DNA of 64,000 bases from the NCBI RefSeq assembly GCF_050920415.1, contig NZ_CP169309.1. One strand, written 5' to 3'. Position numbers and translations under genes: made by a program. Source of the stretch: Escherichia coli. GTDB taxonomy: Bacteria > Pseudomonadota > Gammaproteobacteria > Enterobacterales > Enterobacteriaceae. This document shows, one piece after another, positions 43,677-44,395 of the stretch. The notes beneath the pieces were generated by a model. That model saw nothing but the letters and a program-made list of their open reading frames with translations, was not told the origin of the DNA and did not search any database. Numbering within the stretch: the stretch's first letter is position 1; each line of letters opens with the position of its first letter.

Positions 43677-44072
43677 TTACCGAGTTGCTAATTTGCAACT
43701 CGCTTTTTCGTACTTACTGATAGTGATCTCGACCTTACCTTCCGGGATAACCGGTCCCCACTCCACCAGCATTCTTTTCACCTGACTGTCGTCTTCCCAC
43801 ACCCCCGCGTGGGTCAGGGCGTCAAACAGCGCCTTGTTATAGTTGTCCAGATCGCGGATCCGGTTATCCGGAGGAAACAACACGATCTCCACTGAAGCAG
43901 GTGCCGACGTTGGTTTCGGCAGACGACGTAACTGCTCAACTATTGCTGCGCACGCCGCGCTCTGGAATTTTCGCCCCGCCGCGCTTATCAGGCTCTTACC
44001 AGCAAACGCCCCTTTGTTGGGGTGTCGCCAGTACGTGTTCACGCTGGGCGGGAAAGGCAGTATTAGCTTCAT
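43677..44072 (-). CDS. rusA: Holliday-junction resolvase RusA
   Basis: MKLILPFPPSVNTYWRH...DLDNYNKALFDALTHAGVWEDDSQV; RusA catalytic Asp pattern. Confidence 0.85.
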   Translation of the reverse strand: MKLILPFPPSVNTYWRHPNKGAFAGKSLISAAGRKFQSAACAAIVEQLRRLPKPTSAPASVEIVLFPPDNRIRDLDNYNKALFDALTHAGVWEDDSQVKRMLVEWGPVIPEGKVEITISKYEKASCKLATR

Positions 44073-44395
44073 ACTTTCAGGCCCCTCTCATGTAACCAGT
44101 GGGTTGCACGCAGCCTGGCGTTTTCCTCACCGGCAAGCAGTGAGCGGATAATCCCGACCGCCTCGCTGTCGTCGTCCTTCATCGCAGTATGAAGCGTTAT
44201 CCCCCGGGCCACGCCACGCTTTATCGTGATGACGCCTTTTTTCTCCAGTGCGCGAAGATGCTCCACCGCTGCATTCACTGAACGGTATCCCAGCATGGTT
44301 GCCACCTCCTGATTGGTTGGCGGGAAGCCACGTTCTTTCTGATAAGAAATCAGCATATCCAGCACCTGCTGCTGGCATTGAGTTAACGTCGTCAT
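44069..44395 (-). CDS. LexA DNA-binding-domain-only protein (no S24 peptidase domain)
   Basis: [56 protein letters not shown] closely parallels the LexA N-terminal wHTH; 108 aa; ATGA-coupled to the upstream gene. Confidence 0.65.
   Translation of the reverse strand: [108 protein letters not shown]

Follow-up and report, generated by a model that had tools for sequence, protein, structure and literature searches.

The Escherichia coli repressor LexA dimerises through its C-terminal domain and is inactivated by self-cleavage carried out by that domain, after which the products are cleared by ClpXP and Lon (PMC3159453). A single phage protein with only the LexA DNA-binding domain has been characterised, in tectiviruses of the Gram-positive Bacillus: gp6 of GIL01/Bam35, a truncated LexA homologue, recognises a palindrome of its own, GaCACAnnTGTGaC, and switches on the late promoter P3 (PMC6182141). 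Here we describe a protein from a 64,000-nucleotide stretch of the E. coli chromosome (NZ_CP169309.1; hereafter the window, at its full length), which runs from prfC to yjjG and holds a lambdoid prophage at ~9.1–56.5 kb. The 108-residue product of a minus-strand gene in this prophage, here called the LexA-like protein, is a LexA-domain-only protein of the gp6 type, compared by gp6's published description (PMC6182141), and is best filed as a further uncharacterised phage-encoded regulator with only the LexA DNA-binding domain, a known kind. Whereas gp6 belongs to Bacillus tectiviruses, this family belongs to enterobacterial lambdoid phages and combines the DNA contacts of E. coli LexA with a conserved tail. 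We read the protein, with slightly less than even confidence, as a RecA-insensitive SOS-box repressor that carries a two-helix tail. The gene and the parts of it that bear on this reading are:

44069..44395, minus strand: LexA-like gene, 108 aa, ATG start (open reading frame; PF01726; phrog_362; PDB LexA; model on 3JSO)
44240..44281, minus strand: recognition helix, codons 39–52 (alignment to 1LEA/3JSO; modelled helix 40–52)
44087..44170, minus strand: two-helix tail, codons 76–103 (model helices; conservation; polymorphism)

The initial annotation had described this open reading frame as a LexA N-terminal winged helix-turn-helix without an S24 autopeptidase domain, and each search agrees with that description. 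The product consists of a winged helix-turn-helix (residues 1–68), a flexible link (69–75) and the two-helix tail (76–103). Residues 1–65 cover the whole Pfam LexA_DNA_bind profile PF01726 (1–65 of 65; E = 2.9e-19; 69 bits, cut-off 23.7), and a phmmer search of the PDB aligns residues 2–69 with residues 2–69 of E. coli LexA without a gap (E = 7e-16). An AlphaFold model based on 14 homologues (predicted local distance difference test, pLDDT, 82.8) superposes on the LexA–DNA complex 3JSO with a root mean square deviation (r.m.s.d.) of 0.9 Å over 68 residues at 50% identity; against E. coli LexA in general (1JHH, 3JSO) the domain corresponds residue for residue at 44–50% identity. The match to the LexA domain is far above chance. 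PHROG 362 spans the entire protein (residues 1–108, profile 1–106 of 106; E = 1.1e-59), its name 'transcriptional repressor' being an annotation and not a tested function. A Shine-Dalgarno sequence of the gene's own, GGGAG at 44404..44408 on the minus strand, can be read 8 nt 5' of the ATG. The protein ends in -LKV; Neher et al. in 2003 reportedly identified -VAA as the ClpX signal of the LexA N-terminal fragment.

The LexA-like protein is not a LexA repressor, since three features that define LexA (the S24 peptidase and dimerisation domain, a conserved Ala-Gly cleavage loop and a whole-protein score above the curated cut-off) were tested and not found. The Pfam search gave no Peptidase_S24 match and the chain ends at residue 108; the NCBIfam lexA model TIGR00498 aligns over profile positions 1–91 of 203 only, with a score of 70.6 bits under its cut-off of 110.95; and in the alignment to full-length LexA the domain of the Ser119/Lys156 dyad, which comprises the S24 peptidase and the dimerisation surface, is absent. 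Unlike LexA, moreover, the protein is phage-encoded, has no conserved Ala-Gly loop and carries a tail unrelated to LexA. With the autopeptidase missing by Pfam, TIGR00498 and PDB alignment alike, the earlier proposal that RecA* could not inactivate the protein in the manner of LexA stands. A role as a RecA* decoy was rejected because the C-terminal domain with the RecA* interface is absent (PMC3159453). Heterodimers with LexA, which had also been proposed, are excluded in their classical form because the protein lacks the C-terminal dimerisation domain (PMC3159453); a DNA-templated contact between N-terminal domains is the sole conceivable option left. In domain content the protein equals LexA fragment 1–84, the N-terminal product of RecA*-stimulated self-cleavage, but that fragment binds DNA less tightly and is cleared by ClpXP/Lon (PMC3159453), whereas the phage protein adds a conserved and probably dimerising tail. 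S24-type CI repressors (lambda CI, YmfK) join a helix-turn-helix to a self-cleaving S24 domain, which the LexA-like protein does not have; the S24-type repressor of this prophage is a separate gene, a ymfK homologue.

The tail is modelled with a pLDDT of ~90 as helices 72–88 and 93–103, and no Pfam family matches it. An exhaustive HMMER search recovered short relatives of 38–51% identity that cover the entire LexA-like protein; in their alignment residues 76–103 are patterned alike, with A97 and L101 invariant. The ratio of nonsynonymous to synonymous polymorphism (pN/pS) in the E. coli clade is 0.02 for the winged helix-turn-helix and 0.12 for the tail, values biased downward by the choice of the 80 best protein matches as loci; the Klebsiella clade, sampled without discarding any hit and so serving as an unbiased check, gives 0.27 and 0.32. 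Purifying selection acts on the DNA-binding domain and the tail alike. By analogy, the tail is probably a substitute dimerisation module, because the C-terminal domain through which LexA dimerises is missing here. YtrA-type GntR and MecI/BlaI regulators likewise attach a few helices to the end of a winged helix-turn-helix (Foldseek matches 6sbs, 3tqn, 1sd7 and 2g9w), the matches being weak (E 0.01–0.05; r.m.s.d. 5–10 Å) and without sequence relation, so that this is analogy and not membership.

The idea of a remnant LexA cleavage site at A88-G89, possibly cut in trans by host LexA, was rejected. In the phmmer alignment 'LLAGEE' of the LexA-like protein pairs with LexA 'VAAGEP' (the Ala84-Gly85 site); the relatives read TRKE, SGGD, DDQP or ACSV at this position, and the segment is predicted to be helical. 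Because the resemblance is not conserved, the tail is not a leftover cleavage loop. Furthermore, loci L089–L096 encode before RusA (5001–5477) a 158-residue protein in which this LexA domain (51% identity over residues 1–69) is joined to an unrelated C-terminus of ~90 residues (phrog_29443/phrog_24920). This sister group suggests a constant DNA-binding head with an exchangeable tail, that is, tail swapping.

These measures of constraint also bear on whether the gene could be a functionless remnant of a captured lexA in a decaying prophage. The prophage does have at least one broken gene (Dam), and RefSeq flags frameshifts in a 99.5%-identical relative. The LexA-like open reading frame, in turn, is intact and 95–100% conserved in 2232 genomes and in plaque-forming phages, its pN/pS is well under 1 in two clades, and its non-LexA tail is conserved down to 38% identity, which together make decay an extremely improbable explanation.

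Contacts between E. coli LexA and DNA are made in helix 3 by S39, N41, A42, E44 and E45 (PMC3091678). In the PDB alignment the LexA-like protein is identical at S39, N41, A42 and E45, and E44 is replaced by V. Because the helix-3 contacts are kept except E44, binding of CTGT half-sites is plausible. The shared fold and contact residues would also suit a LexA antagonist or modulator, which would bind weakly to SOS half-sites or to the LexA N-terminal domain, displace LexA or form mixed complexes, and so raise SOS promoter activity; a mixed complex is conceivable in that operator-bound LexA has an N-terminal-domain interface acting together with DNA binding (PMC3159453). We consider such antagonism improbable, as the conserved and selected tail suggests a self-sufficient oligomer and not a bare monomeric competitor, and as the Klebsiella clade places the gene beside DinI, a damper and not an enhancer of RecA activity.

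Potential targets of a CTGT-binding repressor are abundant in the window, which has 8 exact CTGT-N8-ACAG sites against 0.77 expected. Sites were ranked by a heterology index from our own matrix, built on 30 E. coli SOS boxes, in which the real boxes scored 1.3–10.5. Four strong boxes fall within the prophage (9135, 9163, 39614 and 43612):

9135..9154 and 9163..9182, no strand: tandem SOS boxes at the dinI-like promoter (index 3.7 and 4.0)
9196..9444, plus strand: DinI-like gene, 82 aa, same prophage (open reading frame; phrog_189 DinI, E = 6e-31)
39614..39633, no strand: SOS-box-like site over codons 3–9 of a phage DNA methylase gene (38583..39641, minus strand; index 5.05)
43612..43631, no strand: strong SOS box CACTGTTCATAAATACAGTA in the RusA–KilA-N intergenic region (exact CTGT-N8-ACAG; index 5.1)

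The first pair bears out the description of a dinI homologue with LexA boxes on this prophage; the tandem boxes overlap the promoter of this gene, which has a TTGACA hexamer at 9131–9136. The box at 43612–43631, which the first reading had missed, is placed 440 bp 3' of the LexA-like gene and ~90 bp 5' of the KilA-N start, and is a candidate target of both host LexA and the LexA-like protein. Through it host LexA might control a promoter directed toward KilA-N, a 171-aa open reading frame, DUF968 and Q. The RusA–KilA-N intergenic region is kept in 185 of 5426 genomes, and the box was found in 22 of 80 related viral loci; it sits within a ~130-bp segment that is absent from mEp460, where KilA-N directly follows RusA. 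The 39614 site, which recurs in 24 of the 80 E. coli-clade loci, may work as a LexA site or may simply result from the conserved N-terminal sequence MKNTVxxNS of the methylase. Box-like sites (index 3.4–5.1) at similar distances 3' of the LexA-like gene are present in Kosakonia, E. coli and Klebsiella loci (L005 at 6794, L002 at 78, L100 at 8434 and L126 at 8824); the position inside the methylase gene, which lies 3' of Q, was checked in the window only.

Two further sites concern the CI-like repressor genes of these phages. In the window, a moderate SOS-like site AATTGATTATAAATCCAGTT (49461–49480; index 7.7) falls where a small minus-strand open reading frame ends, just 3' of the CI-like repressor gene (the ymfK homologue). 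In mEp460 (L002), the linker-coding part of the CI-like S24 repressor gene contains a near-consensus SOS box TACTGTATGTAAAAACAGTA (9129–9148; index 2.5); a CI-repressor box of the mEp460 type occurs in 26 of 80 loci (L132–L211) and is absent from the window, where the immunity region differs.

The comparative data tie the LexA-like family to SOS boxes and to dinI. In all 28 loci of the Klebsiella-phage clade a strong SOS box stands 0.85–2.7 kb 5' of the LexA-like gene end in the same gene string, and 20 of them have the order box, DinI gene (Pfam DinI E = 1e-23), orf101, LexA-like gene. Loci of the L098 type have no dinI, and there the box follows a terminator-like hairpin directly 5' of orf101 and the LexA-like gene. 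Because the genes separating the box from the LexA-like gene differ between loci whereas the box persists, the arrangement argues, on comparative sequence grounds, that the Klebsiella-clade homologue belongs to a LexA-controlled transcription unit, and these operons reinforce the link to dinI. Several loci of this clade carry a second, perfect-consensus SOS box ahead of a UmuD'-like gene. As an observation of its own, the perfect-consensus box of L120 (3837–4206) is followed by a 109-aa UmuD'-like protein that starts at a GFPSPA motif (phrog_3469) and in which no SGDSM serine motif is seen by eye; it is probably a pre-processed, inactive UmuD' look-alike beside DinI and the LexA-like gene.

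Around LexA-like genes, strong boxes occur at 0.63 per 10 kb in the E. coli clade, 1.41 in the Klebsiella clade and 0.43 in other clades, and at least one is present in 66% of E. coli-clade and 96% of Klebsiella-clade loci. As a control, 80 NinG-anchored lambda-type nin regions, none with a LexA-like gene, yielded a single strong box over 1.25 Mb in total, or 0.008 per 10 kb. Strong boxes are thus 50–170 times denser around LexA-like genes than in lambda-type nin regions, a ratio that describes an association between phage lineages and not independent events, the loci being related to one another. The earlier suggestion that the protein might bind SOS boxes as a non-cleavable repressor gains real though indirect support from these patterns.

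The chief rival is a regulator like gp6, in which the LexA fold would have been re-targeted to a phage-specific operator, for example to activate or time the RusA, DUF968 and Q string, with no action at SOS boxes. The precedent of gp6 itself speaks for it (PMC6182141), as do the recognition-helix positions 43–45, which vary among relatives (E45 is replaced by L, S or G), the many loci without a nearby strong box, and the fact that the most constant neighbour of the gene is DUF968 followed by Q and not an SOS box. The window protein, on the other hand, shares four of the five helix-3 contacts with E. coli LexA, and lambdoid late genes already have an activator in Q. The searches for another operator point the same way: among CTGT/ACAG spacers of 0–16 only N8 is clearly enriched, and within 2.5 kb of the gene the SOS box is the only palindrome that the clades were found to have in common. 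An alternative operator geometry was rejected; sites in the window that seemed to have N3, N12 or N13 spacing fall in the coding sequence of structural genes. On balance we regard a private operator as unlikely, if still a serious contender.

In the SOS-box mechanism that we tentatively prefer, the tail would stand in for the LexA C-terminal domain as the dimerisation element and the dimer would occupy CTGT-N8-ACAG SOS boxes. As the protein could not be cleaved via RecA*, it would restore LexA-type repression in cells whose own LexA is already gone. E. coli phages would express it from the PR transcript, either after loss of the CI-like repressor or after infection. Besides the host SOS regulon, its targets would be SOS-boxed units of the prophage itself, namely dinI (9.1 kb), the string from KilA-N to Q (43.6 kb) and possibly the methylase site (39.6 kb). 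In the Klebsiella clade, the box 5' of the gene's unit, mostly ahead of dinI, would create a damage-induced negative feedback that damps SOS. The predicted outcome, SOS promoters repressed or SOS damped despite RecA activation, is the one known from lexA(Ind-), DinI, PsiB and GIL01 gp7; Ind- LexA is a full-length protein, however, and DinI, PsiB and gp7 act on the RecA or LexA proteins, whereas the action proposed here is direct operator occupancy. DinI homologues are found in the same prophages, and in Klebsiella phages in the same operon. The widest form of this proposal would have prophages of ~40% of E. coli strains (Stx2a/2c phages included) and of Klebsiella encode a RecA-proof LexA stand-in that is tail-dimerised, bound to SOS boxes once host LexA is gone, damage-induced in Klebsiella phages and feeding back on the whole SOS regulon, and this we hold to be rather doubtful.

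Several results weigh against an SOS-box repressor. Apart from the change of E44 to V, position 45 varies among several relatives, with L in the largest of the Klebsiella subclades, S in proteins of the L089 type and G in P0086. Some members therefore cannot recognise CTGT in the manner of LexA. No strong box is present within 5–10 kb in 34% of the E. coli-clade and 59% of the 'other' loci, and the box counts, which come from related phages, could reflect a lineage habit rather than a link to the gene. A scan found no consensus promoter around the LexA-like gene or the 43612 box, where only weak hexamers are visible by eye. Dimerisation through the tail is itself inferred only: the monomer model has a predicted template modelling score (pTM) of 0.56, and the Foldseek matches to YtrA- and MecI-type folds are weak. 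Finally, GIL01 gp6, the sole characterised LexA-domain-only phage protein, acts at an operator of its own, and does so as an activator (PMC6182141).

The gene is neither rare nor unannotated, and its domain call is routine. At 90–100% nucleotide identity it is present in 2232 of 5426 complete E. coli genomes (41%), and 51 deposited phage genomes carry it, including SfV, SfII, SfIV, mEp460, cdtI and Stx2a (Shiga toxin 2a)- and Stx2c-converting phages. The annotations differ, from 'LexA family transcriptional regulator' and 'LexA DNA binding domain protein' to 'LexA repressor' and 'SOS-response repressor and protease LexA', the last two of which are wrong. Full-text literature searches yielded no functional study of the enterobacterial LexA-like protein. 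Relatives were found in Enterobacterales phages only. A scan of the genome collection with back-translated family patterns returned mostly host lexA genes of other Gammaproteobacteria, with a single useful locus, from Kosakonia (L005), and the alignment of the wider family had no stretch conserved enough for searching. What is new here is the conserved tail, the 43612 box, the box/dinI arrangement of the Klebsiella clade and the density of SOS boxes around LexA-like genes.

The SOS response governs prophage induction, antibiotic-triggered Shiga-toxin release, mutagenesis and persistence. A RecA*-insensitive LexA-type repressor in many E. coli genomes and Stx2 phages would, if real, constitute an unrecognised layer of SOS control, would account for the many SOS boxes in phages with the LexA-like gene, and would mean that prophages determine how strong the SOS response of the host is and how long it lasts. 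Its reach would extend to the antibiotic-triggered induction of Shiga-toxin phages, to mutagenesis and to rival elements whose induction LexA controls. Should the protein have a private operator instead, the gp6 case would be widened from Bacillus tectiviruses to enterobacterial lambdoid phages, as a re-use of the LexA fold. Either way the database label 'LexA repressor' misleads, because the protein is without the domain that makes LexA damage-responsive.

As the initial annotation had placed it, the LexA-like gene lies in a nin-type (early-right) gene string, between the replication genes and Q. The minus-strand order is Rha, replication protein, PerC-like, Dam, LexA-like, RusA, the intergenic region, KilA-N, the 171-aa open reading frame, DUF968/HNH-like and Q, with the following principal members:

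44392..45044, minus strand: Dam (phage N6-adenine methyltransferase) pseudogene (Pfam Dam E = 1.6e-41; TIGR01712; alignment with intact copies)
43677..44072, minus strand: RusA Holliday-junction resolvase (Pfam RusA E = 6e-15; phrog_34)
42710..43525, minus strand: KilA-N protein, 271 aa, first gene past the SOS box (Pfam KilA-N E = 1.3e-15; phrog_129 'transcriptional regulator')
41180..42169, minus strand: DUF968/HNH-like protein (Pfam DUF968 E = 4e-80; phrog_96 'HNH endonuclease')
40797..41162, minus strand: Q-type late antiterminator, end of the gene string (phrog_79 E = 3e-51; RefSeq annotation)

The coupling to the upstream Dam-like gene that had been proposed holds in part. The ATGA overlap at 44392–44395 is present and joins the LexA-like ATG to the old Dam stop, which equals the stop of intact Dam in relatives; In the window, on the other hand, a frameshift has turned Dam into a pseudogene, and the LexA-like gene is preceded by the GGGAG described above. 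Compared with intact copies, one base has been lost between 44513 and 44514, changing GACAAGACC to GACAGACC, and the homologous Dam of a near-identical genome is flagged 'frameshifted' by RefSeq. The frame from the Dam ATG (45044) now misses the old TGA and crosses the LexA-like gene as far as 44127, producing a spurious 316-aa open reading frame. A second ATGA at 44069–44072, missed by the first reading, overlaps the RusA start with the LexA-like stop; RusA is the next gene 3' in both the E. coli clade and the Kosakonia clade.

This packing could be taken to mean that the protein is a non-transcriptional accessory factor of Dam, RusA or DUF968/HNH, targeting or protecting DNA sites in replication or recombination. 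The overlaps are tight (ATGA with RusA, reaching 31 nt in Kosakonia L005, and in relatives also with Dam), and a DUF968 homologue (E 1e-69 to 1e-229) is encoded 3' of the LexA-like gene in 44 of the 45 related loci that have such a gene, which makes it the most constant neighbour across clades, Dam and RusA being found in some clades only. The constancy of DUF968 may reflect either function or merely a shared nin–Q module, and gene overlaps are the rule in nin regions and hardly informative on function. An obligate link to Dam was rejected, Dam being absent in SfIV and most Klebsiella-clade loci and broken here with the LexA-like gene retained; so was one to RusA, as most Klebsiella-clade loci have no close RusA homologue directly 3' (L098 has a divergent RusA-like open reading frame further 3'). 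We find an accessory role quite improbable.

The DUF968 protein bears two HNH-like Cys/His motifs. The chromosome NZ_CP169399.1 is 99.5% identical to the window over 19.8–64 kb, and in its RefSeq annotation the portal gene, a lysis protein and another open reading frame are frameshifted (equivalent to ~21.9–36.8 kb of the window). The window prophage may accordingly be defective, the flags having been read from NZ_CP169399.1 and not from the window; the tail assembly protein T, also flagged there, probably represents a normal programmed frameshift. A gene for a PerC-family (YfdN-like) activator (45044–45532, minus strand) lies directly 5' of Dam, which it overlaps by TAATG; PerC/Pch homologues are regulators of virulence loci in pathogenic E. 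coli.

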